A DNA stretch of 64,000 bases from Caldithrix abyssi DSM 13497 (GCA_945865405.1 CAMBDS010000003.1:143436-207435), one strand, 5' to 3'; positions 11,374-36,867 are shown, counted from the first letter of the stretch. Numbers and translations: made by a program. Notes: generated by a model not told the origin, from the letters alone.

Positions 11374-14300
11374 TTACTTAATGCAGACTACCTTCATCCG
11401 ATGCGTCACTCCGCCAGCCTTGAATTGCACGGCATAGACCCCGGAAGGCAGGTCAGTCGCGTCGAACGTCAGCTCATGCCTGCCAGCCTGCTTGAAGTCG
11501 TTCGCCAGTCGCGTCAGCATCCTGCCGTGCAGATCATAGAGCGCCAGGTCGATGTTTCCCGCCGCGGGTAGTTCATACGCAACCCGGAACGACGCATTGA
11601 ACGGCGATGGATATGCCGAAAGCAGTGCCGCATTAACTGGCAGAATATCGCTCCCGTCGTGAACCTCCAGACCAATGACGCGCAACGAAACCGGTATCAC
11701 CAGCCGTTCACCAGCCGCGTTATGGGTAATGATAACGTCACCGGTGACCGTCCCTGAATCGAGTCCCGCCGTGTTCAATTCGATGATAAACTGGCTCGAA
11801 CTGTCTGCCAAAATTAACCCGCTCTCCTGCCGAAGTCCAAGCCATGTCGTCACGATCCCCAACTGATAAACGTCGATGTGGTCGCCGCCGTGGTTGTTCT
11901 GCATATCGTCTTTCAAAACAACCATCGACCAGTCGTAAACCGCGTAATCAGGGCTGATGTCAAGCCCCATCGGAGCCTCCGGTTCGTTCGGGATAAACTC
12001 CGAAACGTACATCGTATCGCTTCTGCCCGCAAGCGAGTATTTGTGTAGCAGTGACCTCGGGTTGTTCAAACTGTCATTTGCGGTGTGGAAGACGTAAAGG
12101 GGAAAGTCGTCGGGATCGTTGGGCCAGTACCCCAGCCCCGTGATCTGGAAACCGCGCTGACTTAATACGGAAAAGACCTGACCCGCCCGGTTACAGCCGT
12201 AAATGCCGTTATTCCTCTGCGATCCACTCACCCAAAGCAATTCACGTACAGGATCCCAGGCTATACCGACATTTTCAGCGTAAGGCCCAATAAACTGGCG
12301 CTGGATTCGACCATGTAGATCGAATCCATAGATGTTGCGCCCGCCGGCACCCCAAAGCAGCTCTCCGTCCCACGCAAGGTCTGGCATCGGCGCCATCAAT
12401 ACACCCGGCTGAGGGAAACTATCGACCAGTGCACCTCGCTCGTTAAACTCATAGAGTAGCGGCGTCCGGCCATCGTATCGTCCAGTCGCATAGAAGCGGT
12501 CACCAACATGCGCCACGCCGACCAACCCCAAATCGCCCGCCCGCCTTGCCGCCGGAAAACTGAATCTGCGATGGCCAATAGGCTCGCCTTCTCCTTCGAC
12601 GATCTTTTCGGCTTCCCACCTGAGCGGCCCGTTGCCTTCATTGTGCATCTGCAGTTCTATCAGCTCGGCTTCTCCGGCATCAAGAGTGCGCTCAATATCA
12701 TTAGCTGGGATCGAGAATTCGGGATGTGTCAGGCTGAAATCGACCGTGACGGTGTCGTTATGTTCAATGGCAATCCCTTCGCGTGACTGCTCGTTCCAAC
12801 CCTGTCCCTCAGCAGTAAGGATATAGCCTTCGCCAATCGCCAGATCGAGATAATAAAAACCGGCATTATCCGTGACGGTTCGCCCTCGCCGGTTGGCTTT
12901 GACGGTCACTCCGCTCGCTCCACGGCCTGTCTCAAGATCGGTCACTCGGCCTTTGGCAACCCCGGATAACACCTGCAACGTAGGCGAGAAGGTAATCGCC
13001 ATCCTGTCAGCAATCTCGCGCGCTCCGGCCGGGTATTGCGCCCAATAGGTGTATTCCAGCCCGCCGTCGTCCTCGAGGTTACCGATGCCGATCATGCAAA
13101 ACGGCAGGTCATTATGTGCAGGACGATTCTCGTTGGTGATGTCGAGGTATTGGAACGTGATAACCCCGTCACCGCTCGGCGTCGGCAAGGAGCTTTGGGC
13201 ATAGAGAATAATCTGGAAAGTTTCAGTTGCGCCCTGCCTGTCGTTCTCCAGCAGTCGCTTCATGCCACTCCACTCGATGATGAACTTGCCGCCGGCTTCG
13301 TCGTAGTAATAGTAAATTCCCGATCCGTTGGGCGTCACCAGATTGTCCCACCACGGGCAGAGTTGAGCGGAAGGTCCGAGCGCCTGTCCAACGTGAGTTT
13401 TCCGAAAATCCGCCAGTTCGCTCTGGTCTCCGAACGCCGCCCAACCATTCGTGCAGACGGTTATCTGGTCGAACTCTTCACCGTAGTACTTGAAAGCAAA
13501 CGGCAATTCGATCATCCGGCTCTTATCATCGTTGTCGCCGGTGTCGGTAATGTTAATGCGAGTTCCTTCGAAATCGCGACGCTGAGCATTCGGGTCGATC
13601 TCTATCCAGTCATAATCAGGAGCCATTGCCCACGATGTATCGTAGGAATCGAAACAAAGGTAGCCATATTTGTCAGGCCCGAACGGATCACGTAAGCCCG
13701 GTCTGCCAACCGTAATCATCGCCGAAGCGGTTGTGCTGGTATTATCGTCAAAGTCGATTTGCATTTCGAGCGGGAACTGCCGTCCCGGGACGATGTTGTT
13801 GTTCGTCGAGATGCGGAAGGGCTGGCTGATCTCCCACTGAGTGTCGCCGATGTCGAGGCCATCATAGCTTGCCTGATTCTGATGCACCGTCAAGTCGCGG
13901 TCGCGGCTGATCAACGTGGCCGTAAAGCCGACCGATGGGATTGAGCCGAAGTTGCTTAAGGAGTAGGAAATGTTACGGATGTCACCAGGGTTTAAGATCC
14001 CGCCGCCTTCGACTTGTAGCGCACCGACGGTGATGGCGGTTGCTCCGCTGACAGGTTCGATTGCCGAGACCCAACGTCTATTCCCGACGAATAAAGTTAT
14101 CTCGAGGCGATGCTTCACAAGGTCTGGGCAATCGGGGGTGACGCTGATTTGGTGGTTGACCTCAATGCTCTCGCCCGGTGCAGGTGCTTCACCCAAGTAG
14201 ATCGTGTCAGCCACAACATCGACCCACGGGGACATTGAAGCGATTTTGATCCCAATTCTTCCGTCGATTTGATCCGAGCCGCTGTTCACAACGGCAAAAG

Positions 14301-17907: not shown

Positions 17908-20900
17908 ATGTGCTTTCATGCCAGATATTTGTTGATTTTTCTGGTGGTAGTTTTCTCGATAATTAAAGGCGTGGCTTTCGCTGTCGAAGTTCAGGGAGAT
18001 GTGCAGGGAGAGTGGACGCTTGAAAATTCGCCTTACATTGTAATTGACAATGTCCGCGTTCCTGCCCAACGAAATCTGACCATCGAGCCAGGTGTCGAAG
18101 TTCGGTTTAATGAAGCGTTGCGACTTGTGGTAAACGGGACAATAACGGCCGTCGGAAATGAGGATGCTCCTATCACATTTACATGGAATCATGAAGAACA
18201 AATGTGGCGGGGGATAAGAGTTATCGGGTCGAATGGTGAAAACACATTTCAATTTTGTCACTTCTTCCATAGCCTACAAACTGACAACTATCCGACAACT
18301 GATTCACGTGGCGGCGCACTTTATGGCGAGAGATCAAATGTTATCGTCAAAGATTGCCTTTTTCAGTTCAACAAATCGAGCGGAGAAGGTGGCGCTGCCT
18401 GCCTTTATAATTCTACGGGTGAGTTCACAAGAACTAACTTTATTGAAAACTTTGGTTACACGGAAATTGTCTGGCTTGAGCAATGCAATATCCCAGTTAC
18501 ATATTGCCTATTTGCAGACAATACAGGCAATTACTGTGCTGGACTTGAGTTTGAAGGTGGCGATGCACCAATTGAAAACAATGTCTTCGTCCGCAACAGA
18601 TCTATAGATATGAATTGGGGCAACGGTATCTATCTTGTTCATGGTGCCCGGCCTATTGTGCGAAATAACTTGATTGCTGATAATATCGGCGCCGGGGGGA
18701 TGTTTATCGGCTACGACGCTGAACCGCAAATTTTCTCCCAAAATACGATTATCAACAACACCGGCAGATGCGGCATCTTCATGGTGAATGGCGGTCGTCT
18801 GAATGCTGTTGACTGCATTATCCGCGATAACCAAGGCCCGGACATTGAGCTTTCCAACGGGAGTGCTTCTATTAGCTACTCCAACATTAGCCGAGTCGAT
18901 GGTTTCGATGTTGGCGAAGGAGTTATCGAAGATGACCCCCTCTTTACTGACCCCGAAAATGGTGACTACAGCCTCCAGTTAGAATCTCCCTGCCGCGATA
19001 CAGGTGACCCCAACTCCCCCGAAGACCCCGACGGAACTCGCGCCGACATGGGCGTTTTCTTTTCGTTGCCTGCACAATTCGAAATTTCTCGCGACACGAT
19101 CCTCTTTGAACCGGTCGGAATTGGCGGTCGAGCCGTCGAAGAATTCCAACTCGAATACCTCGATGGCGCTCATCGCGAGATTTTTCTCCAATTCAGGCCC
19201 GGCGAAGAAGACGATTTCTTTTTCGTAAGCCCTGGTGAAGAGACTATTGAGTTGGGCGATATACTCGACCTCAGTGTGATCGTTCAACCAGCTCGGGGAG
19301 ATGCAATCGGTGTCAGACACGGATCAATCGAAATCTTCTATGACGAACGACCAAACCCGTTTATTTTCATTCCGGTCGAATGTACAATTGTCGAAGGCTA
19401 CGGTCGGATTTACGGGCAGGCTATCGACGCTCAATCGATGAGGCCCGTTCCCGGAACAAGACTGCTATTGGAAGGCTTCCCTGAACATCCCTACGAAATA
19501 CTTGCTGATGAGAACGGAGAAATCGATCTTCCCAACATACCTTGTTGGAGCTATCTGGCTACAATCACCCACCCCGATTTCCAGACAATAGTCTCTGATT
19601 CGATTTTCCTCCAACCGGGCGAGGAGCTTGAATTAGACATGTTGCTCCGGTATTCTGCCGCAGTAATAGACATTGAGGAACTTGCTGTCGAAATCGAGGT
19701 AGATCACGATACCACCCGTCAACTGACACTGGGCAACACTGGCAGCGCCGACCTAACGTTTAACGTCAGCGTCACTTTTCCAGAAGTAGAAGATTTAGAA
19801 TATCTCGCATTGACCGAAACGGTCGGCATCGAGCAACTTCTTCAAGACTCACGCATCCAGGGGCTGGAAGTTGTCGGAGACAAACTTTACGTCTGCGGTG
19901 GCAACAATGGCGAAGGAACAGGTAAGGTTTACGTGCTTGATACTGACTATAATCTTCTCGAAGAGTTCTATCAATTTATGCCATCCAATTTCGGATTTCG
20001 TGACATGACGTGGGATGGGGAGTTACTTTGGGGTATAGATCAGGGGATCGTTTTTGGCTTTACTCGCGAGGGCCAGCTACTTCATCAATTTGACAGTCCT
20101 GCTGTTCCCGGTCGAAACATTACCTACGATATGGAGCAGAACCTTTTCTGGATCTCGGACGTTACTGCCGACTACTTTTCTGTAGATCGTGGAGGAAATG
20201 TGACTCAACGGATCCAACGTCCTGCTTCGAGAGTTTACGGGATCTCTTGTCTGCCTTCCGACCCTGACAGTGCCAGGCTCTACCTCTTTGCCAACGACCC
20301 GGGCCATCCCCACCAACTGAATAAGCTCAATACTGAAACCGGAGAAGTGACCTTAATTGGGGACCTCGATGCGGGAGGCTCAACCGCAGGAGCGACCTCT
20401 TTTTCAAGCAACTGGTCTCCGATAAATCTTCAATTTGTCGCTCTGTTGAAAAACGGGATCGATGGCGATGGTAACGACCAGATCGGTTTCTTTCATTTGG
20501 AAACACGAAAGGAATGGATAAAAGTCTCGCCAATGGAAGGCTTTGTCGCACCAGCCGACGAGTTCAACCTCGAGCTGACCTTCGACGCGACGAATTTCTC
20601 GGTGGCTCGCCTAAACGCGCTGGTGAATATCGCTCACAATGGACGTGGCGATACGTTGACAGTGCCAGTGGAGCTTACCATCCGACCCAACGACGTCGAT
20701 CGCTTCGACCCTCGTGCAGACATTCCCTCGAAATTCGCTCTTCATGCCGCCACCCCCAACCCGTTCAACAGCACGACTACGATCCGATTCGACGTGCCTG
20801 CGACGAGCGAAGTGTTGCTTCAAGTCTTCGACCTGCAAGGCCGTGTAGCGAGAACTCTGGTCAGCGGTAGGCGTCAAGCGGGCGTCTATCAAGCGATCTG

Positions 20901-20991
20901 GGAAGCTGGCGATGCTCCCGCCGGAACGTACATCTGCCGCATGGAGGCGGCCGGGTTCCAGAAGACTGTGAAGCTGATGCTGGTGAAATAG
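17908..20991 (+). CDS. Right-handed parallel beta-helix protein with propeller-like tail and T9SS sorting domain (1027 aa)
   Basis: AGGAGG SD, then a signal peptide. Beta-helix turns (IVKDCLFQFNKSSGEGGAA; IENNVFVRNRS; IVRNNLIADNIGAGG; FSQNTIINNTGRCG; CIIRDNQG). The tail is homologous to the C25 paralogs (MTWDGELLWGID...). The C-terminal domain reads TPNPFNSTTTIRFDV...FDLQGRV...GTYICRMEAAGFQKTVKLMLVK. Confidence 0.85.
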   Translation: MCFHARYLLIFLVVVFSIIKGVAFAVEVQGDVQGEWTLENSPYIVIDNVRVPAQRNLTIEPGVEVRFNEALRLVVNGTITAVGNEDAPITFTWNHEEQMWRGIRVIGSNGENTFQFCHFFHSLQTDNYPTTDSRGGALYGERSNVIVKDCLFQFNKSSGEGGAACLYNSTGEFTRTNFIENFGYTEIVWLEQCNIPVTYCLFADNTGNYCAGLEFEGGDAPIENNVFVRNRSIDMNWGNGIYLVHGARPIVRNNLIADNIGAGGMFIGYDAEPQIFSQNTIINNTGRCGIFMVNGGRLNAVDCIIRDNQGPDIELSNGSASISYSNISRVDGFDVGEGVIEDDPLFTDPENGDYSLQLESPCRDTGDPNSPEDPDGTRADMGVFFSLPAQFEISRDTILFEPVGIGGRAVEEFQLEYLDGAHREIFLQFRPGEEDDFFFVSPGEETIELGDILDLSVIVQPARGDAIGVRHGSIEIFYDERPNPFIFIPVECTIVEGYGRIYGQAIDAQSMRPVPGTRLLLEGFPEHPYEILADENGEIDLPNIPCWSYLATITHPDFQTIVSDSIFLQPGEELELDMLLRYSAAVIDIEELAVEIEVDHDTTRQLTLGNTGSADLTFNVSVTFPEVEDLEYLALTETVGIEQLLQDSRIQGLEVVGDKLYVCGGNNGEGTGKVYVLDTDYNLLEEFYQFMPSNFGFRDMTWDGELLWGIDQGIVFGFTREGQLLHQFDSPAVPGRNITYDMEQNLFWISDVTADYFSVDRGGNVTQRIQRPASRVYGISCLPSDPDSARLYLFANDPGHPHQLNKLNTETGEVTLIGDLDAGGSTAGATSFSSNWSPINLQFVALLKNGIDGDGNDQIGFFHLETRKEWIKVSPMEGFVAPADEFNLELTFDATNFSVARLNALVNIAHNGRGDTLTVPVELTIRPNDVDRFDPRADIPSKFALHAATPNPFNSTTTIRFDVPATSEVLLQVFDLQGRVARTLVSGRRQAGVYQAIWEAGDAPAGTYICRMEAAGFQKTVKLMLVK

Positions 20992-21926: not shown

Positions 21927-21950
21927 TGAAGACTTCAGATAGCGCCAAAC

Positions 21951-22010
21951 TAATTCGCAATTCGTAATTCTATCATTACATTCGTAATTCGTAATTCGTA
22001 ATTCGTAATT
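21951..22010 (-). repeat. Heptanucleotide tandem repeat (AATTACG)n
   Basis: The minus strand reads ATG-(AATTACG)x4-AATGTAATGATAG-AATTACG-AATTGCG-AATTAG. The four perfect copies are at 21983..22010. Confidence 0.85.
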
Positions 22011-22012
22011 CA

Positions 22013-24401: not shown

Positions 24402-25622
24402 TCACTTCATGGCTTTCAATTCTTTAGCCCAAATCAACCCGATCAGCCCGCACAATCCTCCGCCGATGCCGATGCTGAAAAAGAGGATTCTCGCTCCGTA
24501 CAGATCAAGCGCTACCCCGGCAAGTCCTGCCGAAATCGCCGACATACCGACGACGGCGATGTTCACCAACGCGAAAATCTGCCCCGTCATTTCGCGAGGG
24601 ACGAGAGACTGAATAATCGACGCGCGACTTACCGTCAACATCGGAATCGCAAGCGAGTGGATGATGATCGTTATCTCCAGCGCCAACAGAGACTGAACCC
24701 AGAAGATCGGGATAAATGTAATCCCGTCCAACACCATTCCCACCAATAATACCTTCCCTTTGGGTAGATTTTTCCCCAACCATAACAGCAACCCTATCCC
24801 GATCAGCATACCGATAGCGTAACAACCTTCGATCAGGGCGAACGAGTCTGCGCCGAGTCCAAGATCGTGCTTGATGAATACAGGCGTGCCGACAATCGCA
24901 GGGCCCATTATGAAGATATTGTCGGCGATGGTGATCAATAATAACGGGCCGATAACCTTGTCTTTGGCGGCGAAGCGAAGACCGTGAAGGATGTCGGACC
25001 AACGATTACGGGGATGGTGGACATCTGTAGGTCGGTCAGCTGGCACCACCCTCATTGCAAGTATAGTCCCCAGCGAGAAAGCATAAGTTGCCGCGGCGGC
25101 CCAAAAAAGCGGGATCTTGCCGAAATAAAAGAGTACCCAACCGGCAATCCCTGGCCCGATCAACATCGATAGCTGCCACGATGTCTGGATCAACGAATTT
25201 GCGCGAACAAGGCCTGATTCTGGCACGATCTGTGGCACAATAGCATCACGAGCCGGATTAAAAAACGTCGCCGCTATCGCTATTGCAAACGCGTTTAACC
25301 CCAAAAATAGAGGCGTTATGCCATCTGTCAATGCCAACAGCGGAACCGCCAACACCAACAGCAGTCTTGCGCTATCAGCAACAATCATAACTCGCAGCCG
25401 GTTGTGCCGGTCGGCGATCACTCCAGCAAGCAAGCTGAAGATTACCGCAGGTAGGTATGACGCCATCGCAACGAGACCGGTCGCTGTCTCCGACCCGGTC
25501 AACTCAAGCGTGATCCAGAGCAGTCCGATCTGGTAAATCGAATCGCCGCTCTGCGACGCCATCTGTCCGAGCCAAAGGAACGTCAGATTGCTATTTTGAA
25601 AAATCCGTTTAAGCAGTGGCAC
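24402..25622 (-). CDS. MFS transporter
   Basis: 406 aa with about 12 hydrophobic helices. N-terminal FLWLGQMASQSGDSIYQIGLLW and a DRHNR loop, typical of the MFS_3/enterobactin-exporter-like group. GTG start. Confidence 0.85.
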   Translation of the reverse strand: MPLLKRIFQNSNLTFLWLGQMASQSGDSIYQIGLLWITLELTGSETATGLVAMASYLPAVIFSLLAGVIADRHNRLRVMIVADSARLLLVLAVPLLALTDGITPLFLGLNAFAIAIAATFFNPARDAIVPQIVPESGLVRANSLIQTSWQLSMLIGPGIAGWVLFYFGKIPLFWAAAATYAFSLGTILAMRVVPADRPTDVHHPRNRWSDILHGLRFAAKDKVIGPLLLITIADNIFIMGPAIVGTPVFIKHDLGLGADSFALIEGCYAIGMLIGIGLLLWLGKNLPKGKVLLVGMVLDGITFIPIFWVQSLLALEITIIIHSLAIPMLTVSRASIIQSLVPREMTGQIFALVNIAVVGMSAISAGLAGVALDLYGARILFFSIGIGGGLCGLIGLIWAKELKAMK

Positions 25623-26054: not shown

Positions 26055-29000
26055 ATGAGAGCAACGATACTGCTTACATTGATGCTTTTAGTTACAACAA
26101 TCGCCTTCGGGTCGCCAAGTTTCGAACAAAACGCGACCATTTCCCGAGCCAAGTTGCTCGCCTCAAGTCCGACCTCTGTTAAGATCAGCTACGATCTGGC
26201 AGAGATTAATCCGGAGACTGTCGAAATAGAAGGGGCTGAACTCTCGAGCTTCTCGCTCCCCGGCGAAGGCGTTATTGTCCAGAACGGAATGCCAGCTCTC
26301 CCCGGCATCAGCCGCTACGTCGTAATCCCACCCAAATCGGCAGTTGAATTAATTGTTACCGAAGATGGCACTCCCCGCAGGACTCGAGCCGAAAATCCTC
26401 CTCTCCTTACGAATGAACCGTCCATTGGTGAGCCAACAGTTTTCCCCAACGAAGGTGGTCTTTTTCCGCCAAATATGGCTGAACTTTCGGAGCCAATCGT
26501 CGTTCGTGGTGTCCGCTGTGTGCTGGTCACAATTTACCCAATTCAGTATGACCTCAATTCCGGTGAGTACGTCCATCACCAAAATCTGCAAGCCGAAGTC
26601 AGGCCTTGCGACGGCGAAGTCATCAATCCGGTTATATTCCCTGAAAGACGTGGAAGAAGCCGCGAATTCCTGAAGATGATTAGTCTGTTTGCGATCAATG
26701 GTGATGAGGTCGGTCGCGACGACCCCGACCGCGATGCCTTACCCCGATACAACGGCCATTACTTGGTTATTGCCCATGAGTCACTTCTCAGATTTGCTGG
26801 CACTTTTATCGAGTGGCGACGCAAAGCCGGATACAAGGTCGATCTACTTTCCGTCCCTAATGGAAATGCAACTGATGATAGTTGGATTCTGGCAAGAATT
26901 CGTGAAAAGTACAACGCCTATTTGAACGCAGGTCAGGACCCATTCGAATACGTTCTAACGATAGGTGATCGAAGTGGTTATTATGAGATGGGGAATCCCG
27001 GCGCAGTCCTCGAATCCCCACAAGGAGCGAACGTTTTTGGTGCCAAACATGGTGACTGGCTCTACGGTTGTGTAGAAGGCAACGACGAAGTCCCCGACAT
27101 CGCGACAGGACGCTGGCCAGGCGGTAATTCTGACCTTGTAGGCTTAATGGTCGGACGAACACTTGCCTATGAAGCCACTCCCGATATGGAAGACCCAAGC
27201 TGGTTCACTCGTGGTGGAGCCGTTTCGCAACACTGGGGTAATAGTCAGGAGACGGCATACCATGTTACCAATCCGTCGATGGTCCGCTGGGGGGAGTCTG
27301 TCCTTCGTAATCTAAATTATCGCGATATTCGCACACATGAACTTTTGAATTGGGATCAGTACGGACGCGAATCGGGGCCTGTCTTCAGACGCCTCCTGAA
27401 CGACGGCGCTAATGCCGTATTGGCACGGTCGGAAAATTACTTCTGGTGTACACGCAATCCACAGCGAAACTATTTCGATCAGGATATTCAGACCAATACT
27501 TCTTTCCCGTTCCGCTTGAACGCTTCAGGACACGGCGAATGGTCAGCCGAGATGGAGTTTCGAACCGGTTCCACAAACCAACTCAGAGGCTGGGTGGCGG
27601 TGACTTTCAGCTGGAATGGGCCGTTAACCGGTGCTTCGACCAGCCTCTGGTCAGATGAAGTACAAGCTGTAATGCTACACGACCTTCCGCTTGGCTGGGG
27701 ATATTCTTATGCTCAAGCACATATACCTGCCAACATCCACAACGATGGGATGATGCCGTACTATCGTACTGATCACAACTTCTTCGGCGATCCAGGCCTG
27801 AAGCACTGGCGAGGTGTCCCGCGTGAGGTTGAGATCGAAGGTCCTGCGTCTATTTCGACCAAAACCCGCCTTGTCGAAGTCGTTGTTCACCAGCCTGATA
27901 GCGACACTCCCGTCGCGAATGCAATCGTCAGTTTCTATGCGCCGGGGAATATACCCGCATTTGACAACGCCGGTTATGCCACTTATACCAGGATGTGGGT
28001 CAAGAACACCCGCTCAGACGCCGATGGTATCGCCCGTGTGGTTCTCGAATCGACCGACACTCTCATCAACCAGACTAATCTCTTCGTTACCGTTACCGGA
28101 CCCGACATCGTTCCTTGTTTCCATCAAGCCCGAATCGGAGCACAAAATTCCCTTGTGGAATTGCGCACTGTCGGTTATCAGGAAGAGCAAGGCAATGGCG
28201 ACGAACGACTAAATCCGGGTGAAGCATTCTCGGTCTCGTTATCGGCACAAAACCTTGGTCAGGATGTTGCTCCCGGAACTGTGGCAACAATTTCCACCTT
28301 TTCCGAATACATTGAGGTCATCGGCGAAAATACAATCACCTTCGACGATATCGCCGCAGGTGAGACAAACGCTGGCAATTCAAGCGTTGTGCTCTCTATT
28401 CTCCCTCACTGCCCAGACGCATTAGCTCGACCAGTGCTGAAACCTTCCATTAAGGTCGAATTCACCTCTGACGATAATGTCTGGAAATCAGCTTTTAATC
28501 TCGACGTCTGGGCTCCTCATCTCGAGTTCCGCTCAGTAGTGGGAGGCATCGAAATCCCTGACTCAGCAACCTCGATCAACGTCGAAATAGCCAACATCGG
28601 ACGCGTCAACTCCGGGGCAATCGCGGTTGATCTGCATAGCATGGGCCAAGGCGTCACCGTCATCGATGGCAGTTCAACCTTCCCGGCGATAGTCCCAGGG
28701 CGGACGGCGCGGCTCGACGGAGGCCCGTTTGATATCAGTGGCAACAAAGTCGTCGTCCCCGGCTCTCGCTCACCACTTTACATGGTCTTCGCGACCGAAT
28801 CGGGGTTTGTCGATACCAGTTTCTTCGAGTTACAGATTATGCACCCGCGCACGCGAGCCCCGATTGGTCCCGATAAATACGGCTACATATGTTTCGATAA
28901 TACTGATACTCTATGGGATAACGCGCCTGTCTATGACTGGGAAGAGATCAATCCGAACGATCAGCAATGCGAATTCGAAGGTTCCGCCCTCAACTTCCGC

Positions 29001-31538
29001 GGACAATCGGAGCGTGACCTCGGTGAAGCGATTGTCGTGCCGCTCGGATTCACCACCCAGTTTTATGGTCGTGAGTTCGACACAATTACCGTCGCCTCGA
29101 ACGGTTTTATCACGATGGGTAACCACCCACGAATGACCAACCATCACAACTATCCGCTCGATTCTGGAATCGGCGGCGTCGGGATGATTGCTCCTTTCTG
29201 GGACGACCTCCGGTTTAACCAAAACTCGCGTATCTTAATTTATCGGGACCGGGAAGACAGCCGGACTATCGTCGAGTGGCACCGTCTCAGACCTGCCACC
29301 GGAGATGCTGACTTAACTTTTCAAGCTATCCTATACGACAAAGATGTCTGGATCACCCAGTCTGGCGATCCGAACATTCTCATCCAGTACAAGGCTGTCA
29401 GGGACTCAATCGAGAATATCCGTAATGGCGATGCTGCCGAAACGACCAATAACCCCTATGCCTCTGCCGGTATCTGTAGCCCCACCGGCGAAACCGGCAT
29501 CAACTACATGTCCTTCAATCGTTATGCTGTCGGTGCAGCTCCCCTTGAGCCGAACAGAGCCCTGCTATTCTCAACTTCCGTCAAGTTTAGGGCGGGTATC
29601 CTTTATGGCAGGGTTACTGACGCCGCTACCGGTGAGGGCATCCCCGGAGCGACAGTCTATACAAAACACGGATTTGTGGCGACCACAGAAGATGACGGCT
29701 ACTGGCGAATTGCCGAAGCCTTGGCCGACATTCTCTTCGACATTACAGCTCACAAACAAGGCTATAACGACTCAACTTTCTTGGCAGATGTTGACAGCTT
29801 GATTATCCCGGAGGGTGATTCTCTCGAAATCAACTTTGACTTGTTGCATCCCGAGTTCTCCCCTTCGACTTACGACCTGTCAGCACGGCTTGACCCCAAC
29901 CGCTCTATCGATATTGGATTTTCCCTCTTCAACAGCGGCAACGGACCAATGGATTGGACCGCCGACAAACGACTCCTCGGCGATGCAAACGCAGAGCCTT
30001 GGCAATTAAGACGCGCTTACAATGTCAGCGACACGGTCGAAGACCTTCGCATCGAAGGCGTCCTCTTCGCCCAAGAGATGTTCTTTCTTTCTGGCGCGAA
30101 CGAAGCTGCAAACGTAGATGATAACCTTATCTACAAGCTTGATCGTGATGGAGCTTTGATCGATACATTCCTCCAAACCGGTTCATCTCGCTACGGCTAT
30201 AAGGATATGGATTGGGACGGCGAGTACATCTGGGCGGTTGGTCAGGACAGCGTTTATGCCTTAACGACTTGGGGTGAGGTAGCAATAAGATGGGCTCTGC
30301 CAATGCAAAATCCAGCCCCATACATCGCTTACAATTCGGACGATGGAATCCTATATATCAGCGGGACAACTTCCAATATCTTCCGCTTTGACAGGGACGG
30401 CAATCGTCTTGAAGGCGACCTCGACAATCTCGAATTAAAGACTTATGGTCTCTCTTATTGGCCCGAAGACCCAGATGGGCACAATCTTTACATCCTGAAC
30501 AAACCAAGTAATATAGAAAATCGTACAGTAGTCACCAAAATGGATGTCAACACCGGCGATACGCTTTCCGCCTTCGAGATTCCCCAACAGGAAGGATCAA
30601 CTGGCCAAATCGGCGGCTGGATAACCAACGAGTTCGACGTTTACAGCTGGGTCTTCATGAGTCTACAAAACGTTTCCGCCAATGGCGGAGGCGACAAATT
30701 GCAGATTCATCAGCTTGACGCACGCAAGGATTGGATGAACCTCGATGTCTGGGGTGGCAGGTTGGAGACGGGTGAAACACAGGAATTGGTGCTGACCCTC
30801 AACTCAGCAGCCCTTCCCGACACCTTATTCCAAGGCGAGATATTCTTCGTCCACAATGCCGATAGCGGTGTCGCTCATATCGCCATTTCACTCGATGTTA
30901 TCGGCCCCGAAAGGCCTTCCAATTTCGATCTGCTGACTCCTGTCGATGGTGACACTTTGCGAGCCCTCCCGTCACGAGCCGACTCGCTTCGATTGGCTGA
31001 ACTCCGGTTCTCCTGGATGCCGTCGTTTGACGCCAACTTTGACGATAATGTAACCTATATCCACTGCCTGCAAACCGGTGACCAAAAAGTCAGCTTTGCC
31101 GTCGCTGATACTGCCAATACCTTAAGCCTCGATACACTCGATCTGCCACTCTGGTTTGACACCCCGTTGATCTGGTGGGTGCAAGCCGTCTCCGGGCAGG
31201 ATACTGTCGAGAGCAACGCCCGGTTTACGTTGCAGATCGTCCCCAACAGTCTTGACCCGGTCGAAGTGATCCCTGTCGAATTCGGTTTACAATCAGCATT
31301 CCCGAACCCGTTCAACGGTCGCACCGCCATCCGCTTCGGAGCTGATCTTCGTCAGCAGACGACGCTAATCGCCTACGACCTCGCCGGACGTGAAGCCGCC
31401 CGGCTCTTCGATGCTGTACCCGAAGTAGGCTACCACACCGTTGCCTGGAATGCCGACCGACTTCCAACCGGAATTTATGTCCTCCAATTGAAGTCAGCCG
31501 GACGGACAAGAGTTGCTAAACTCGCTCTAATTAAGTAA
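26055..31538 (+). CDS. Giant gingipain (C25)-like T9SS-secreted protein, paralog 2 (1827 aa), catalytic Cys apparently absent
   Basis: GGGAGAG SD, then a signal peptide. C25-like core (YLVIAHESLLRFAGTFIEWRRKAGYKVDL; VLTIGDRSG), but FPFRLNASGHGEWS at the Cys strand. GPDKYGYICFD module. CarboxypepD_reg-like (GRVTDAATGEGIPGATVYT). Propeller-like repeats (MDWDGEYIWAVG). C-terminal domain FPNPFNGRTAIRF...YDLAGRE...GIYVLQLKSAGRTRVAKLALIK. Confidence 0.85.
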   Translation: MRATILLTLMLLVTTIAFGSPSFEQNATISRAKLLASSPTSVKISYDLAEINPETVEIEGAELSSFSLPGEGVIVQNGMPALPGISRYVVIPPKSAVELIVTEDGTPRRTRAENPPLLTNEPSIGEPTVFPNEGGLFPPNMAELSEPIVVRGVRCVLVTIYPIQYDLNSGEYVHHQNLQAEVRPCDGEVINPVIFPERRGRSREFLKMISLFAINGDEVGRDDPDRDALPRYNGHYLVIAHESLLRFAGTFIEWRRKAGYKVDLLSVPNGNATDDSWILARIREKYNAYLNAGQDPFEYVLTIGDRSGYYEMGNPGAVLESPQGANVFGAKHGDWLYGCVEGNDEVPDIATGRWPGGNSDLVGLMVGRTLAYEATPDMEDPSWFTRGGAVSQHWGNSQETAYHVTNPSMVRWGESVLRNLNYRDIRTHELLNWDQYGRESGPVFRRLLNDGANAVLARSENYFWCTRNPQRNYFDQDIQTNTSFPFRLNASGHGEWSAEMEFRTGSTNQLRGWVAVTFSWNGPLTGASTSLWSDEVQAVMLHDLPLGWGYSYAQAHIPANIHNDGMMPYYRTDHNFFGDPGLKHWRGVPREVEIEGPASISTKTRLVEVVVHQPDSDTPVANAIVSFYAPGNIPAFDNAGYATYTRMWVKNTRSDADGIARVVLESTDTLINQTNLFVTVTGPDIVPCFHQARIGAQNSLVELRTVGYQEEQGNGDERLNPGEAFSVSLSAQNLGQDVAPGTVATISTFSEYIEVIGENTITFDDIAAGETNAGNSSVVLSILPHCPDALARPVLKPSIKVEFTSDDNVWKSAFNLDVWAPHLEFRSVVGGIEIPDSATSINVEIANIGRVNSGAIAVDLHSMGQGVTVIDGSSTFPAIVPGRTARLDGGPFDISGNKVVVPGSRSPLYMVFATESGFVDTSFFELQIMHPRTRAPIGPDKYGYICFDNTDTLWDNAPVYDWEEINPNDQQCEFEGSALNFRGQSERDLGEAIVVPLGFTTQFYGREFDTITVASNGFITMGNHPRMTNHHNYPLDSGIGGVGMIAPFWDDLRFNQNSRILIYRDREDSRTIVEWHRLRPATGDADLTFQAILYDKDVWITQSGDPNILIQYKAVRDSIENIRNGDAAETTNNPYASAGICSPTGETGINYMSFNRYAVGAAPLEPNRALLFSTSVKFRAGILYGRVTDAATGEGIPGATVYTKHGFVATTEDDGYWRIAEALADILFDITAHKQGYNDSTFLADVDSLIIPEGDSLEINFDLLHPEFSPSTYDLSARLDPNRSIDIGFSLFNSGNGPMDWTADKRLLGDANAEPWQLRRAYNVSDTVEDLRIEGVLFAQEMFFLSGANEAANVDDNLIYKLDRDGALIDTFLQTGSSRYGYKDMDWDGEYIWAVGQDSVYALTTWGEVAIRWALPMQNPAPYIAYNSDDGILYISGTTSNIFRFDRDGNRLEGDLDNLELKTYGLSYWPEDPDGHNLYILNKPSNIENRTVVTKMDVNTGDTLSAFEIPQQEGSTGQIGGWITNEFDVYSWVFMSLQNVSANGGGDKLQIHQLDARKDWMNLDVWGGRLETGETQELVLTLNSAALPDTLFQGEIFFVHNADSGVAHIAISLDVIGPERPSNFDLLTPVDGDTLRALPSRADSLRLAELRFSWMPSFDANFDDNVTYIHCLQTGDQKVSFAVADTANTLSLDTLDLPLWFDTPLIWWVQAVSGQDTVESNARFTLQIVPNSLDPVEVIPVEFGLQSAFPNPFNGRTAIRFGADLRQQTTLIAYDLAGREAARLFDAVPEVGYHTVAWNADRLPTGIYVLQLKSAGRTRVAKLALIK

Positions 31539-31680: not shown

Positions 31681-31782
31681 TCACGTATGATCCAAAGTGT
31701 ATGCACTGCCGGATCACCTTTATTTATTCCGGAGTTACCTGACCGTAATTCCAATTCACCTGAAATCAACCGTCAAAGAGTA

Positions 31783-34700
31783 ATGCGCACAACTACAATT
31801 TCCTCGATCATAACCCTTTTCTTCGCCGCGACGCTATCGCTCGCTTCTGCATCTGCCGATTCCCAACCAGGCGCTCTTGAGCGTTTTGCCCCCGCAGCGA
31901 CCTTCGATGTCTCGAGCAGCGCCTCTAGTCTCGACCTTCGTATCGAAATCGAATCGGGGGACGCATCGAAGCTATTGAAAGAGGCGAGTCTCCAATCTTG
32001 GGACGGCTCACTTCCCGAAGCGCTCATTCGTTGGGTGGTTTTGCCGGATCACGGAAATGCCGAAGTTCACGTCAGCAACGTCGAAGCTACCCGCTCCGGT
32101 GAATCGTCGAACGATTTGCGGTCTACCCGGTTGAGTTCATCCGAGTTGAGCCAATTCACGTCGCTCGGTGCCCCCCAGACAATGCGTGGCATCCGGATGG
32201 TGCCATTGGCAGTAAGGTCGATGATCGTTGACAGCAAAGGCAAGACAATCGTCGCCAGCCGCCTCGATGTACAGGTTGAGTTTACGGGTGGTCAAGGCTT
32301 AAACGAGGTTGTCCATCCTTCACCAGTCACGGAAGGGTTCGCAAGTCTTATCCGCAACATGACCCTTAATCCTCCTGCAGAGTTTCCGCACCGCGACCCT
32401 GCCGCCGCCTATTCTTCGCGAATGTTGATCCTTCGACCTTCATCTCTTGCAAATCAAGCCGCCCTAAACAGCCTGAGCGCCTTCGCCGACTGGAAGCGTC
32501 AGCAGGGATTTGAAGTCACCCTGACCAGCGTAAATACCGCCAATACAACTCCTGTCCAGATCCGTGACCTTATCAGCGACGGCTACCCCGAAGATCCCTA
32601 CGACTATGTCCTGATCGTCGGCTGGTACTACTCATATTTGGATACCCTTAGGCCCGACGCAACCCTGGAATTCCCTGCGTTTGAGGTGGAAGACGATGAA
32701 TCCATACGTCCCGGTGACCTTTTCTATGCTACTCTTGACAACGAAGGCGATGAGACCGACGATTGGCTGCCTGATGTGATGATCGGACGAATGGTCGCTC
32801 ACAGTCCTGCTGACCTTCAAGCAGTCCTCAACCGCTCTATTCGATACGAGAGAGATCCGTATTCAGGTCCAAATGGTGATGGAGCTTGGTATCATCGAGC
32901 AGTTCACTGCGAAGATGGCGTAGATGCCGATTCATTGCTCAAGGATTCAGATTTCGAAATGGCTCGTTGGGTTGGTAATTTGCTCGCCAGAAAAAGTATG
33001 ACTACCTCTGTTTATATGGGCGGCAGGAATGATACTGAAGCAGATGAACGTACATCGCTGGAGGAAGGAGTCTCGATCGCTTCAGCCGATGGTTACCTCT
33101 TTGGAATGGCAGTAGGGACAGATGAAGGCGATTGGGACGAGGCCAACACAGGGAGGATGCATCCGTTTGTTATTGCCAATGCACATTACTACGACTATCC
33201 ACGGCTATTCCCGTTCTTCAGCTCAGGGACACTAAACGATCCCAACGGACCCATTGGTGCTGTAGGATTTGCCTTTGGCCATTGGGATCGCATATCGCGA
33301 CCCTTTGTCGCTGGCGCTCTCAGGGCGATAATTAATGGCGACGACAAAACCATTTCTAACTTCTGGTTGGGTAGCGCGCTCAACGTAATGGGAAATTTGG
33401 TGACAATACATCCTGACAGTTCGCTTGCCATTTTAGAGTTGAAACAAAAATTGTCACAAGTAATCATGCTGGGAGATCCGACCGTAAATCTCTTTCTCGA
33501 TCTTCCAAAAACACTTGCCACCGACTTGCCGGAAACACTCTACCCCGGCACCACGGTTCTCGCTTTCAAGTTGACTGATGCAGATAACCAGCCCGTCTCC
33601 GGTGCAACCGTCGCAATCAGTCAGTCTAATCGCATACACCTCGTCGCGTGGACAGATGAATCAGGTAACGTCGCGATCTCCATCCCCAACGGAATCGCAG
33701 AAGGAAACGTTCAGTTGACCGTTAGCAAGCAAGGCTACCAGCCGGTCTTTCTTGCAAACTTGCCCGTCGAATATCCCCCGGTCAATCTTGTCCTGCAAAA
33801 TTTTACGCTCGATCCCGACCCGCTTGTCAACGGCACCTCCTCAGCATTGGGTTTGACCATCGAAAATGATGGTGAAAATGACGCAGAGGAAGTCGATGTC
33901 GAATTCAAGTCCGACTCACCGTTCCTCACTTTCTCGCGCAACAGCGCGGCTCTCGACAATATCGCATCGGGTGAAAATGGCGGGCTCTCCTCGGAGGTCA
34001 ATCTGATTCTCTCGCCTTCCTGCCCCGGCGGGACAATCGTTCAAGTCTTGCTCAACATGTCCTCCAGAAATGACGCCTGGCAAGCCGCTTTCGAGTTCAC
34101 CACATCAGGTCCTCATTACGATGCTCCCTCCGTAGTCGTCTATGAAAATGTCCGCCCCGGCGCCGAAGGAACAGTCTCGCCACGACTCGTCAATAGCGGC
34201 GACCGCGCCGGAATTGCCCTCAATGCGACGCTTGTCAGTCTGACCGAACATGTCAGAATCGTGGAGGGCAACCGTAATTACGGTGCCATTGCCACAGGCG
34301 ACACAGGTATGCCCAACAGCGCCTTCAGAGTCGCAGTCGATACGCTCTTCGTTCCGGGACAGTGGGCTGAGTTTGAGCTAAGGCTCACCGGCGAAGGGAA
34401 CGTCGCCACCGCCCTTCGATTCCGCAAAGTCATTTCCCAAGCCGATGTCAACGACCCGATAGGCCCCGACAATTACGGCTACTACGCCTTCGATAGCCGC
34501 GATGCAGGCTGGGCACAAGCCCCGACATTTGATTGGATCGAAATCAATCCCGATTACGAGGCTGGTAACGACTTTGATGGCGTTCGACTCGATCTTCAAG
34601 ACGAAGGTGATCGAGGCGGATCATCGACGCTTATCGATTTGCCATTCTCATTCAGATACTACGGCAAGGACTACGACCAGCTCGTCATCTGTTCGAATGG

Positions 34701-36867
34701 TTGGGTCTCATTCGATACTCTGTCCCTCGATTATCACAGTCCGAACAATGAAGGAATGCCCGCGATTGGCCCGGCTCCCGATGCCCAACTCGCTGTCTGT
34801 TGGCAGGACATTTTCAATTTTTATCCTTGGAAAAACGGTATCTACACCCATTCAGATACAGAGAATGGCATAGTTGTGATCGAATGGAGCGACCTTCAAT
34901 TGGAGCAAGCCCAACAGGTTGCCGATTCTGCTCAGTTTCAGATAATACTTTACGATCCCGCCAAGTATCCGACTCGCACTGGTGACGGTGAAATCAAGTT
35001 TCAATACCGCCGGTTCAGCGAAGTCAGTGGCAAGGTCGATTACCACTGGTACTCTACCATCGGCATCCGTAACCCAGACGGAACCGACGGTATCCAGTAT
35101 CGCCACGCCCTTGGCTACAATGAACTTGCCAATCCGGTCGAGAACGGCTTTGCGATAATGTTCACTCCCTCGCTCTCGAATACTTATGGAACCGTGAGCG
35201 GCAGGTTTGCGAGGCTTGAAAACCAACAATTGGCTCTCCCCGACGTTCAGATATTCAGCTACCGGGGTATCGACGTTGTCAGTGCTCAGGACGGAAGTTT
35301 CCAGTTCTCCGCCCGCCCGGGACATTACGAAAACGTTTCCGCCACCCTCCGCCATTTCAACGACATGACGCTGACGTTCGATGTCCGTGAAGGCGAAGTG
35401 ACCAATCTCGGCAACCTCCTGATGGTTCACCCCGAGATCTCCCAAGTCCCTGAACGCGTCACGACAGGTCTTCAGCCCGGCTTCCCGACCCAACAACCGG
35501 TCTTTTTCAACAACTCAGGCAATGGCCAGCTCGACTACACAACATCCATTGTCCGTGCAGATGGTCAACGGGCAACCTTTGAGATCCTCGACACCTTTCG
35601 CATCGGCACTATTCTTGGTGATAACTCTACGACCTCGCCTGTCTATGTTGATCAAGTGCTCTTCTTTCCTCGCAACAACGGTGGCAATGGCGCACAGGTT
35701 ATGACTGCTGTCGGCCTGAACGGTGCGCGAACTGGCGAGGAAGTGCCACTTCCAGGGCGGGATTCGCTGGATGCTATTCCGCAAAGTGTCACATCGGACG
35801 GAGCTGATTTCTGGGGAAGTTTCAGGTATTTGGATAGCCCCGTTAATGATATTATCGAATTTAATCGTCAGGGTGCTATACAACGGCGCTTTATTTCCCC
35901 TTTCAATAGTCAGACCATTAATGCTATCATTACGTATTCCCCTGCTCGAAATTCGCTCTTTGCCATCCAACCCGAAGATGAGCTAATTGTTGAACTTGGT
36001 TTGGACAGCGCCCATTTTGGCGAGATAATCAACAGTTGGGAAGTCTCCTTCCCTACTGAGGAATTGATTCCCACGGGCATTGGCTGGAATTCTTACGACA
36101 CAGATAATATGCCCCTCTATCTTATACTCAAAAATTGGGCAACGCTCCCAGATGGTGTTCGCGGCCAACGTATTGTTCGCTTCGATCCCGAGTCAGGGAA
36201 TTTCGAAATTTTCACCTATATTAGAAATATCAACCTGCCAACAGTCGATGGAGTCGATCGCTCCAGCTTCGGCCTTGCCTTCATTCCGGGCCATAAAGGC
36301 GCAAACGTCGCAATGGTTCTTAACGAAAATGTGAACCCCGTCCGCAACGACATCCTCAAAATCGTCGAAATCGGCCCCTACGTCCCCTTTGTCTCTGGCA
36401 GATTGATCCATACCCCCGGCTCAGTTCCCGCCGGAGGCCAAGGCTTCTTCACCATTCCGTTCGACGCGACCGGGTTGGAGGAAAGCGACTACTCCTTCGG
36501 CGTCAAGCTCTTCCACAACGCCCTCGGCGACAGCGTCTTCATTCCAATTACCCTAAATGTCAATGACACCAACGGTGTCGGCGACGATCCAGTCACCCTC
36601 CCAATCGATTTCGGCATCACCAGACTTTACCCGAACCCCTTCAACTCACGCATCGGCATCGACTTTGTCATGCCCATCGGTGAGAGGTCTGTCCTCAAGG
36701 TATTCGATCTCGCAGGTCGTGAGGTCGCCACCCTCTTCGACGGTCGCTCCGTTAGCGGCAGCGAGAGGCTCTTCTGGGACGCCGCCAATTTCTCGACCGG
36801 CGTCTATATTGTCAGGCTTGAGTCCGGCGACCGGGTCGTCACCCGCAAAGCCGCCCTGATCAAATAG
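31783..36867 (+). CDS. Giant gingipain (C25)-like T9SS-secreted protein, paralog 3 (~1694 aa), catalytic Cys apparently absent
   Basis: I prefer the start at MRTTTISSIITLFFAATLSLASA (31783) over the track start at 31687. C25-like core (MLILRPSSL...FADWKRQQGFEVTL; VLIVGWYYS), but HPFVIANAHYYDYP at the Cys strand. GPDNYGYYAFD module. C-terminal domain YPNPFNSRIGIDF...FDLAGREV...GVYIVRLESGDRVVTRKAALIK. Confidence 0.85.
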   Translation: MRTTTISSIITLFFAATLSLASASADSQPGALERFAPAATFDVSSSASSLDLRIEIESGDASKLLKEASLQSWDGSLPEALIRWVVLPDHGNAEVHVSNVEATRSGESSNDLRSTRLSSSELSQFTSLGAPQTMRGIRMVPLAVRSMIVDSKGKTIVASRLDVQVEFTGGQGLNEVVHPSPVTEGFASLIRNMTLNPPAEFPHRDPAAAYSSRMLILRPSSLANQAALNSLSAFADWKRQQGFEVTLTSVNTANTTPVQIRDLISDGYPEDPYDYVLIVGWYYSYLDTLRPDATLEFPAFEVEDDESIRPGDLFYATLDNEGDETDDWLPDVMIGRMVAHSPADLQAVLNRSIRYERDPYSGPNGDGAWYHRAVHCEDGVDADSLLKDSDFEMARWVGNLLARKSMTTSVYMGGRNDTEADERTSLEEGVSIASADGYLFGMAVGTDEGDWDEANTGRMHPFVIANAHYYDYPRLFPFFSSGTLNDPNGPIGAVGFAFGHWDRISRPFVAGALRAIINGDDKTISNFWLGSALNVMGNLVTIHPDSSLAILELKQKLSQVIMLGDPTVNLFLDLPKTLATDLPETLYPGTTVLAFKLTDADNQPVSGATVAISQSNRIHLVAWTDESGNVAISIPNGIAEGNVQLTVSKQGYQPVFLANLPVEYPPVNLVLQNFTLDPDPLVNGTSSALGLTIENDGENDAEEVDVEFKSDSPFLTFSRNSAALDNIASGENGGLSSEVNLILSPSCPGGTIVQVLLNMSSRNDAWQAAFEFTTSGPHYDAPSVVVYENVRPGAEGTVSPRLVNSGDRAGIALNATLVSLTEHVRIVEGNRNYGAIATGDTGMPNSAFRVAVDTLFVPGQWAEFELRLTGEGNVATALRFRKVISQADVNDPIGPDNYGYYAFDSRDAGWAQAPTFDWIEINPDYEAGNDFDGVRLDLQDEGDRGGSSTLIDLPFSFRYYGKDYDQLVICSNGWVSFDTLSLDYHSPNNEGMPAIGPAPDAQLAVCWQDIFNFYPWKNGIYTHSDTENGIVVIEWSDLQLEQAQQVADSAQFQIILYDPAKYPTRTGDGEIKFQYRRFSEVSGKVDYHWYSTIGIRNPDGTDGIQYRHALGYNELANPVENGFAIMFTPSLSNTYGTVSGRFARLENQQLALPDVQIFSYRGIDVVSAQDGSFQFSARPGHYENVSATLRHFNDMTLTFDVREGEVTNLGNLLMVHPEISQVPERVTTGLQPGFPTQQPVFFNNSGNGQLDYTTSIVRADGQRATFEILDTFRIGTILGDNSTTSPVYVDQVLFFPRNNGGNGAQVMTAVGLNGARTGEEVPLPGRDSLDAIPQSVTSDGADFWGSFRYLDSPVNDIIEFNRQGAIQRRFISPFNSQTINAIITYSPARNSLFAIQPEDELIVELGLDSAHFGEIINSWEVSFPTEELIPTGIGWNSYDTDNMPLYLILKNWATLPDGVRGQRIVRFDPESGNFEIFTYIRNINLPTVDGVDRSSFGLAFIPGHKGANVAMVLNENVNPVRNDILKIVEIGPYVPFVSGRLIHTPGSVPAGGQGFFTIPFDATGLEESDYSFGVKLFHNALGDSVFIPITLNVNDTNGVGDDPVTLPIDFGITRLYPNPFNSRIGIDFVMPIGERSVLKVFDLAGREVATLFDGRSVSGSERLFWDAANFSTGVYIVRLESGDRVVTRKAALIK

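Follow-up and report, generated by a model that had tools for sequence, protein, structure and literature searches.

Four proteins encoded in a 64,000-nucleotide stretch of DNA from Caldithrix abyssi DSM 13497 (GCA_945865405.1 CAMBDS010000003.1:143436-207435; hereafter the window) end in the same tail, in which a CarboxypepD_reg domain is followed by an ASH domain with a predicted five-bladed β-propeller inserted after its third strand, then by optional extra domains and finally by a type IX secretion system (T9SS) C-terminal sorting domain (CTD) of type A. The ASH domain and the propeller nested within it, which together we call the cassette, behave as a single evolutionary unit. Cassettes form an old paralog family that has expanded greatly in one family of the Calditrichota and has recombined several times with heads of C25-peptidase, β-helix, PA14/BACON, lectin-like and FG-GAP type. 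The four open reading frames (ORFs) of the window are labelled A (11374-16344 (-), 1656 aa), B (17908-20991 (+), 1027 aa), C (26055-31538 (+), 1827 aa), the protein on which the initial annotation centred, and D (31687-36867 (+), 1726 aa as listed).

Homology and fold of the tails

The initial annotation placed homologous and collinear tails at 11374..12726 (-) in A, about 19650..20991 (+) in B, 29847..31538 (+) in C and 35428..36867 (+) in D, and this was confirmed both by BLASTP and by an independent profile. When the cassettes were compared all against all by BLASTP with the CTD removed, significant matches were obtained for A–C (E 1e-39), B–C (1e-25), A–B (1e-19) and A–D (3e-5), but neither the C–D nor the B–D pair gave a significant match on its own. 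The profile, built from 26 other paralogs of the same genome with A–D excluded, matched all four tails over its own full length (C 409 bits, A 293, B 293 and D 122, the last with E 2e-36). The motifs quoted in the initial annotation, namely HPEF/HPEI, NxGNG(P/Q), TGSADL in B, WDGE(L/Y)(L/I)W, RDGAL(V/I)D and YG(L/I)..DPD..LY, were all present, D being degenerate at several of them (SDGADFW for WDGE and DTDN for DPDG). The copies differ strongly at the nucleotide level, as had also been noted: blastn (word size 7, E≤1e-3) found no DNA similarity among the four tails. The unit held in common with B begins about 80 aa ahead of the boundary first proposed, at the CarboxypepD_reg domain (B 499 corresponding to C 1181), and BLASTP aligned B 499-935 with C 1181-1629.

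We predicted the structure of C residues 1264-1619 with AlphaFold2 (AF2), using as input 30 cassette copies of the window's genome that are 17-78% identical to C. The mean predicted local distance difference test score (pLDDT) was 92.7 and the predicted template-modelling score (pTM) 0.89 for the whole cassette, and 93.5 and 0.91, respectively, for the propeller alone. DSSP assigned 20 strands to the core, comprising four blades of four strands each and a fifth blade in which three C-terminal strands are joined by the N-terminal strand LRRAYN, giving a 1+3 velcro closure. On this model the core of the tail is a five-bladed, WD40-like β-propeller of about 245 residues. The propeller-like core suggested initially is borne out by this confident prediction (pLDDT ∼93) and by Foldseek, all of whose top matches were propellers; the six- or seven-bladed fold of NHL/YncE/SMP-30 type that had been considered is not what structure prediction gives.

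The best structural neighbours were phage proteins. By query-normalized template-modelling (TM) score, Foldseek gave 0.63 for the phi11 receptor-binding protein (5efv), 0.60 for CJ1041c and about 0.5 for seven-bladed WD40 proteins, and among predicted viral structures phage tail-spike and baseplate proteins came first (TM 0.61-0.63), the phage neighbours as a whole superposing with root-mean-square deviations of 4-5 Å. The platform of the phi11 receptor-binding protein is a five-bladed propeller (PMC4901313); it is like the cassette propeller in blade number, and is itself non-catalytic and part of a surface-recognition protein. The two differ in that their identity is only ∼12-14%, with no relation at the level of sequence and a TM score near 0.6 that is moderate, and in that one belongs to a trimeric phage fibre whereas the other is carried on a T9SS cargo. 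A profile of the cassette that included both ASH pieces matched Nostoc punctiforme 2ymu blade for blade (E 1e-28) at profile positions 50-207, that is, in the propeller part and over about four consecutive blades. This likeness to 2ymu and to the WRAP-T designs derived from it is one of sequence within the blade, including the [DN]R[DN]G hairpin, but those proteins have seven blades per ring against five in the cassette and superpose with a TM score of about 0.5.

The propeller family is without a curated model in either Pfam or NCBIfam. Searches of the tails alone against Pfam (E up to 10) and NCBIfam (E up to 1) returned the CTD and scattered weak matches only, and phmmer of the tail against PDB sequences returned nothing useful. 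The only Pfam family recurring on the propeller was DUF6923 (PF21959, cut-off 27 bits), a repeat of unassigned function, which matched 9 of 30 paralog propellers at E≤0.05 (best E 4e-6), 4 of 38 sampled relatives (best E 6e-7) and, at 12.9 bits, the propeller of B; Pfam gave no DUF6923 match on the propeller of C or on most family members. These mostly sub-threshold matches suggest a remote relative, and we do not assign the propeller to DUF6923, a name that in any case adds nothing on mechanism. The other sub-threshold Pfam matches on the propellers were isolated ones to Kelch, DUF5074, Mala_s_1-like, Reg_prop and SdiA-regulated families.

The split ASH domain and the T9SS sorting domain

The initial annotation read the tail as an Ig-like domain, a repeat region and a second Ig-like domain. 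This order was not borne out, since both 'Ig' pieces belong to a single ASH/HYDIN-type domain, the first supplying its three N-terminal strands and the second its five C-terminal ones. In the AF2 model, the piece before the propeller has three strands in ∼45-50 residues and the piece after it has five. The Ig-type Pfam matches of B are complementary: the one ahead of the propeller covers positions 5-40 of Cep192_D3, and the one behind it covers positions 39-93 of PF22544. With the sequences left intact, PF22544 scored 25.4 bits in B against a cut-off of 25.5, over its C-terminal half only, and Pfam found no PF22544 match in A, C or D. We then removed the propeller from 24 paralogs and joined the flanks, leaving ∼112 aa. 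Pfam now matched BACON_2 in 16 of the 24 spliced sequences, an OCRL-like ASH domain in 8 and PF22544 (HYDIN/CFA65/VesB) in 8. Positions 3-99 of a profile made from the spliced sequences aligned with a single ASH domain of HYDIN (568-660), contiguously through the junction (whole-protein E 3e-38), and in other proteins encoded by the genome the same profile picked out seven domains that run uninterrupted for 86-113 aa (best E 3e-14). Where the module recurs in heads, as in P0014, the order N-half, propeller, C-half is repeated, demonstrating that the nested unit is duplicated as a whole.

A series of three separate domains (Ig, propeller, Ig) would be compatible with the linear order of motifs and with the presence in B of Ig-type matches on either side of the core. 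However, 45-50 residues and three strands are too small for an Ig domain, the flanking matches of B cover complementary halves of their profiles rather than two whole ones, and the spliced sequence behaves as one domain towards both the HYDIN ASH domain and the seven unsplit domains of the genome. We therefore consider such a series very improbable. Compared with the known ASH/HYDIN-CFA65-VesB Ig domains (PF22544, PF21310 and BACON_2 PF19190), which the spliced pieces match, end to end in the case of HYDIN, the domain of the cassette differs in being broken after strand 3 by a whole propeller, and intact cassette sequences score at or below the Pfam cut-offs. A Pfam-type model of the unit must consequently allow for a split Ig domain. 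Domain nesting is, moreover, cleanly illustrated by a propeller that sits in an Ig domain and is inherited together with it.

In C, a CarboxypepD_reg-like domain (29604..29843 (+), residues 1184-1263, with a partial PF13715 match at 1184-1222) adjoins the cassette. The N-terminal part of the ASH domain (29844..29993 (+)) has three strands (AF2 strands 11-16, 21-29 and 36-44) and carries HPEF and NSGNGP; the five-bladed propeller within it, mapped by AF2 and Foldseek, occupies 29994..30728 (+) (residues 1314-1558); and the C-terminal part (30729..30911 (+)) has five strands, with W..P..G...PG and HNA.G. An extra domain of ∼125 aa (30912..31289 (+)), which has no Pfam match and by alignment is not present in A, B or D, separates the cassette from the type-A CTD (31299..31523 (+)), which scores 24.7 bits with TIGR04183 (cut-off 23) and stays under the 27-bit cut-off of PF18962 (20.1 bits on the whole protein, 22.1 on the tail alone). 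The tail of A, on the (-) strand, consists of CarboxypepD_reg (12727..12954; PF13620 46.5 bits), the ASH N-terminal part (12583..12729) and C-terminal part (11665..11847), both placed by alignment, the propeller between them (11848..12582; profile and alignment) and the CTD (11401..11613; PF18962 31.3 and TIGR04183 32.2 bits). That of B, on the (+) strand, begins with a CarboxypepD_reg-like domain placed by the B–C alignment (19408..19647; PF13620 24.3 bits, under the 32.3 cut-off), followed by the ASH N-terminal part (19648..19797), with TGSADL in place of NxGNG and the Cep192_D3 match at B 588-623, the propeller (19798..20511; profile and alignment, with weak Kelch and DUF6923 matches), the ASH C-terminal part (20512..20691), with the PF22544 match at B 863-917, and the CTD (20755..20976; TIGR04183 30.3 bits). 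In D, also on (+), the ASH N-terminal part (35425..35571; HPEI, NSGNGQ; alignment) leads into a diverged propeller with insertions (35572..36384), which has SDG for WDG, matches the profile at the 122 bits given above and sits on a long tree branch; the ASH C-terminal part (36385..36573; alignment) and the CTD (36625..36849; PF18962 34.3 and TIGR04183 36.7 bits) complete it.

A T9SS sorting domain at the end of the tail, as first proposed, is thus supported in all four proteins, each ending in a Pfam Por_Secre_tail match and being over the TIGR04183 cut-off, and the genome encodes PorU (NF033707, 608.5 bits against a cut-off of 420) on contig C34. The same genome, an assembly of 2.76 Mb that is ∼90% complete, has at least 149 matches to T9SS type-A CTDs, which for its size amounts to a very large share of coding capacity for proteins that are secreted or displayed on the surface. 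It is established for T9SS that cargos undergo export, removal of the CTD by PorU and fixing to the surface (PMC4804311 and PMC8545088), and that an Ig-like domain commonly precedes the CTD, or is needed before it, as in the IgSF-CTD (immunoglobulin superfamily domain followed by CTD) of gingipains (PMC4804311). By analogy, Sec and T9SS probably export A–D, which the CTD/PorU pathway would then retain on the cell surface.

The cassette resembles the IgSF-CTD tandem of RgpB/Kgp and PPAD (Peptidase_C25_C plus PF18962/TIGR04183) in that an Ig-like sandwich stands before a type-A CTD on both C25-headed and other cargos, in a genome with PorU. It differs in having an Ig domain of ASH/HYDIN-VesB type with a 245-residue propeller inserted, and CarboxypepD_reg in front; a Peptidase_C25_C-like Ig domain is found by Pfam in A and D, but far upstream of the tail, at about residues 560-690. 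The parts are of kinds already known (T9SS CTD cargo, ASH-type Ig domain, WD40-like propeller). In the literature that we searched, there was no account of an ASH domain that contains a propeller and serves as a regular unit ahead of the CTD, and no paper joining Calditrichaeota and type IX secretion.

Spread, heads and divergence of the cassette

The cassette profile matched about 31 ORFs in the window's genome, and about one in five (∼20%) of its CTD cargos carry the cassette. By BLAST and Pfam, the heads comprise 11 full C25 giants, to which two or three others cut off by the end of a contig can be added, 11 β-helices and one PA14+BACON; a further two proteins have a second nested module as head and one short protein has no head. 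A 2948-aa protein (G000:C12:26769-35615 (-)) has one cassette at residues 880-1256 and another at 2176-2454; in the profile match to the latter, the ASH N-terminal part is missing. Since about a fifth of the T9SS cargos, most of the large C25 peptidases included, bear a module without a name in domain libraries, much of the cell surface is missed by annotation.

We extended the search to a representative library of 1.84 billion proteins, where the profile gave 7750 matches at E≤1e-3, 2798 at E≤1e-10 and 838 at E≤1e-30, so that recognizing the unit would improve the annotation of at least 838 protein clusters at the last threshold. Among 38 sampled relatives, CarboxypepD_reg (PF13620) was present in all and the CTD in 36, and the heads included C25, β-helix, Laminin_G_3, FG-GAP, PA14, legume-lectin-like and GLEYA domains. 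Heads that are 100 aa or longer occur in 133 of the best 149 representatives: about 40 of these heads are a second nested module, 25 a full C25, 24 a β-helix, 16 the non-catalytic rear part of giants, 1 PA14 and 27 other. The region after the cassette measures 90-120 aa (CTD only) in 40 of the 149, 160-220 aa in 22 and 360-400 aa in 67. C belongs to the middle length class, as do two other giants of its genome.

Among named genome records, holders of the cassette were metagenome-assembled genomes of Calditrichaeota/Caldithrix and Candidatus Hatepunaea (Ca. Electryoneota, FCB group). Within Calditrichota, 68 of 79 species genomes have it. In the family of the window's genome, all 16 genomes have at least 17 copies and 14 have at least 26; in other Calditrichota families the number runs from none to at least 26 and is mostly one to eight. 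Long tandem arrays were seen in relatives of the same family, at G009:C57:9931-39794 (at least nine matches) and G010:C42:9587-35598 (at least seven), where the arrayed proteins are of ∼1170-1200 aa, of the double nested module type and spaced by ∼3.6 kb. First-look candidate counts in same-family genomes, which are unconfirmed, reach 332-493 per genome.

The copies are old, as the initial annotation had it: their proteins are 17-30% identical, and synonymous sites are saturated even in the closest paralog pair. The accompanying claim of domain shuffling is supported, and vertical descent contributes as well. In a FastTree phylogeny of 177 cassettes, the well-supported branches cannot be explained with fewer than 4-6 changes for each head class, which documents swaps of heads, but the three main head classes need only 16 changes in all compared with 53.5 when heads are shuffled (none of 200 shuffles was as low), so that for the most part a cassette has diverged along with its head. 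C and its nearest paralog (G000:C2:60308-65827) are 75-87% identical in the propeller and 30-50% in the head. Whichever region of this pair is taken, the identity of third positions in conserved G/A/V/T/P codons lies at 0.27-0.33, and such random levels everywhere rule out recent gene conversion or cassette exchange. With third positions saturated throughout, the conserved propeller of the pair reflects uneven constraint. This constraint is far stronger in the pair than in the family at large.

Candidate functions of the cassette

When the blades of a propeller have four antiparallel strands, their A-B and C-D loops fall on one face of the ring and their B-C and D-A loops on the opposite one. 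By this topology the ASH domain would be joined at two points, where the velcro strand begins and where the last strand ends, both of them on the A-B/C-D face. Over the 177 family members, the A-B/C-D loops have a column entropy of 1.7-2.0 bits and the B-C/D-A loops, which also hold most of the indels, one of 2.4-2.8 bits. The WDG, [DN]R[DN]G and DPDG turns all lie on the conserved A-B/C-D face, and the near-invariant residues of the propeller are Gly, Asp, Trp and Tyr in turns together with one Gln.

These features are consistent with the reading that we favour, and consider more likely than not, in which the cassette is a nested module on an Ig stalk that offers a non-catalytic binding face, distal to the stalk, near the anchor of the protein. 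The ASH domain would take the place of the usual pre-CTD Ig domain and act as stalk, the conserved A-B/C-D face of the propeller joining it and the variable, indel-prone B-C/D-A face pointing away. This distal face would be a non-catalytic ligand-binding surface through which the head, whether enzymatic or adhesive, or else the cell itself would be attached to particles or polymeric substrates in a manner analogous to a carbohydrate-binding module, a lectin or the five-bladed receptor-binding platforms of phages. A non-catalytic binding face is suggested because many relatives consist of two modules only, because no set of catalytic residues is conserved, and because the locus also encodes an M28/PA peptidase, a TonB-dependent receptor with a DUF4249 protein and a major facilitator superfamily (MFS) transporter. 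Abundant Calditrichota degrade protein in marine sediments (PMC6365825 and its reference 63). At ∼350 aa, the cassette offers a defined target, predicted to fold well, for the study of how T9SS enzymes outside Bacteroidota are tethered to their substrates.

Several points weigh against this reading. The proposed function is deduced from architecture, and it is DSSP strings and strand topology, rather than measured contacts, that give the blade count, the two faces and the contact with the ASH domain. The contrast in conservation between the faces is moderate, and the most conserved stretches include a loop of the 'variable' face (Q111...G118..D121). About 45% of relatives have ∼280 extra residues between cassette and CTD, so that adjacency to the CTD is not obligatory for the cassette. 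The FastTree phylogeny has several long branches. Finally, over 55 pairs of C25 giants the propeller has a mean identity of 24.8% against 25.3% for the C25 region, which rules out the propeller as the generally best-conserved part of these proteins.

The initial annotation had left docking and ligand binding side by side, and a pedestal or docking role is the main rival to a binding face, though we hold it to be rather unlikely. On this account there is no external ligand and the cassette serves the secretion and anchoring pathway, either as a rigid spacer that raises the heads above the outer membrane or through its conserved face, which would dock on PorV/PorU-like proteins, a lipopolysaccharide anchor or an S-layer-like lattice. 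The invariable C-terminal position of the cassette among the sampled relatives, after CarboxypepD_reg in 38 of 38 and before a CTD in 36 of 38, would agree with it, as would the presence of the cassette on about a fifth of the CTD cargos irrespective of head type, the retention of one propeller face and several turns in 177 members, and the common need of T9SS cargos for an Ig-like domain before the CTD (PMC4804311). However, about 120 other CTD cargos of the genome have no cassette, and the further domains that ∼45% of relatives place between cassette and CTD fit it poorly. Many relatives made of two modules with no enzyme would be odd for a mere adaptor, and a common docking partner should have limited divergence, whereas the paralogs are only 17-30% identical and have a variable face. 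The remaining rival, that the propeller is itself an enzyme of lactonase, DFPase, virginiamycin B lyase or SMP-30 type working alongside the head, we likewise regard as very improbable. It draws on weak profile matches, to DFPase and Vgb lyase as well as to an exported gluconolactonase (3dr2, E 2e-4), and on the occurrence of Vgb lyase among the Foldseek matches, but these profile matches span one or two blades only, such enzymes have six or seven blades where the core here has five, the invariant residues are not a His/Glu/Asn metal set, the putative active face is the variable one, and no hydrolase or lyase family appeared among the sub-threshold Pfam matches of 30 paralogs.

A tentative extension of the distal binding face, which we put forward as a possibility but hold to be rather unlikely, is that the nested unit is a diversifying receptor scaffold, each paralog having its own ligand on that face. 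The dozens of paralogs per genome (at least 26 counted), some of them in tandem arrays, prompt this idea. Were it true, one family of Calditrichota would bear a large surface repertoire for binding detrital polymers or particles, the C25, β-helix and lectin heads would be interchangeable effectors plugged onto it, and the scaffold would be a cellular counterpart of the phage five-bladed receptor-binding platforms.

The heads of A–D and the neighbouring genes

The initial annotation emphasized the different heads of the four proteins. This applies to B, but A, C and D form one family: they are paralogs of a single giant C25 protein, collinear over their whole length, so that the window has two head types and only B departs from C25. 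Peptidase C25 (PF01364, cut-off 23 bits) is over threshold in A (99.8 bits), D (98.4) and C (57.6), A and C are 27% identical by BLASTP across 1714 aa (E 2e-156), and A and D match over their full length with E 2e-107. C comprises a putative signal peptide, a C25 propeptide, the C25-like domain, a NIDO-like region and the tail; D, likewise a C25 giant, has the most diverged cassette of the four. The putative signal peptide of B is followed by a right-handed β-helix head (PF13229, 56 bits) and the tail. Inspected by eye, the N termini of A, B and C, and that of D from Met33 onwards, are hydrophobic with an Ala-rich end. ORF D probably starts 32 codons further downstream, at 31783: Met33 is followed by what looks like a typical signal peptide, MRTTTISSIITLFFAATLSLASA (the extra upstream codons are 31687-31782 (+)), and the protein collection lacks the 1726-aa sequence and contains a 1694-aa form with the same cassette, P0007.

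The C25 heads (A 14689-15651 (-), C 26745-27900 (+) and D 32440-33520 (+)) may not all be active. We compared them with the catalytic dyad of RgpB, His211 and Cys244, by alignments that are weak. In A the Cys is aligned (ISCETGNF versus VACVNGDF) and the His is off by one position, and in D a Tyr stands opposite the catalytic His. In C, where the alignment does not include the catalytic region, SGHGEW is kept by eye and a Ser seems to occupy the expected Cys site.

Interleaved with the cassette genes, at 8469-10934, 21072-24286 and 24402-25622, all on the (-) strand, are genes for an M28 peptidase that has a PA domain, for a TonB-dependent receptor with a DUF4249 protein after it, and for an MFS transporter. 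The gene layout around the cassettes looks like that of a protein or peptide harvesting locus. The TonB-dependent receptor itself starts with an N-terminal CarboxypepD_reg domain. Upstream of B, two small overlapping ORFs (16713-17264 (+), 183 aa, and 17257-17844 (+), 195 aa) each match only the C-terminal half of Methyltransf_11, near their own N termini; they may be tandem short methyltransferases or a mis-started or split gene.

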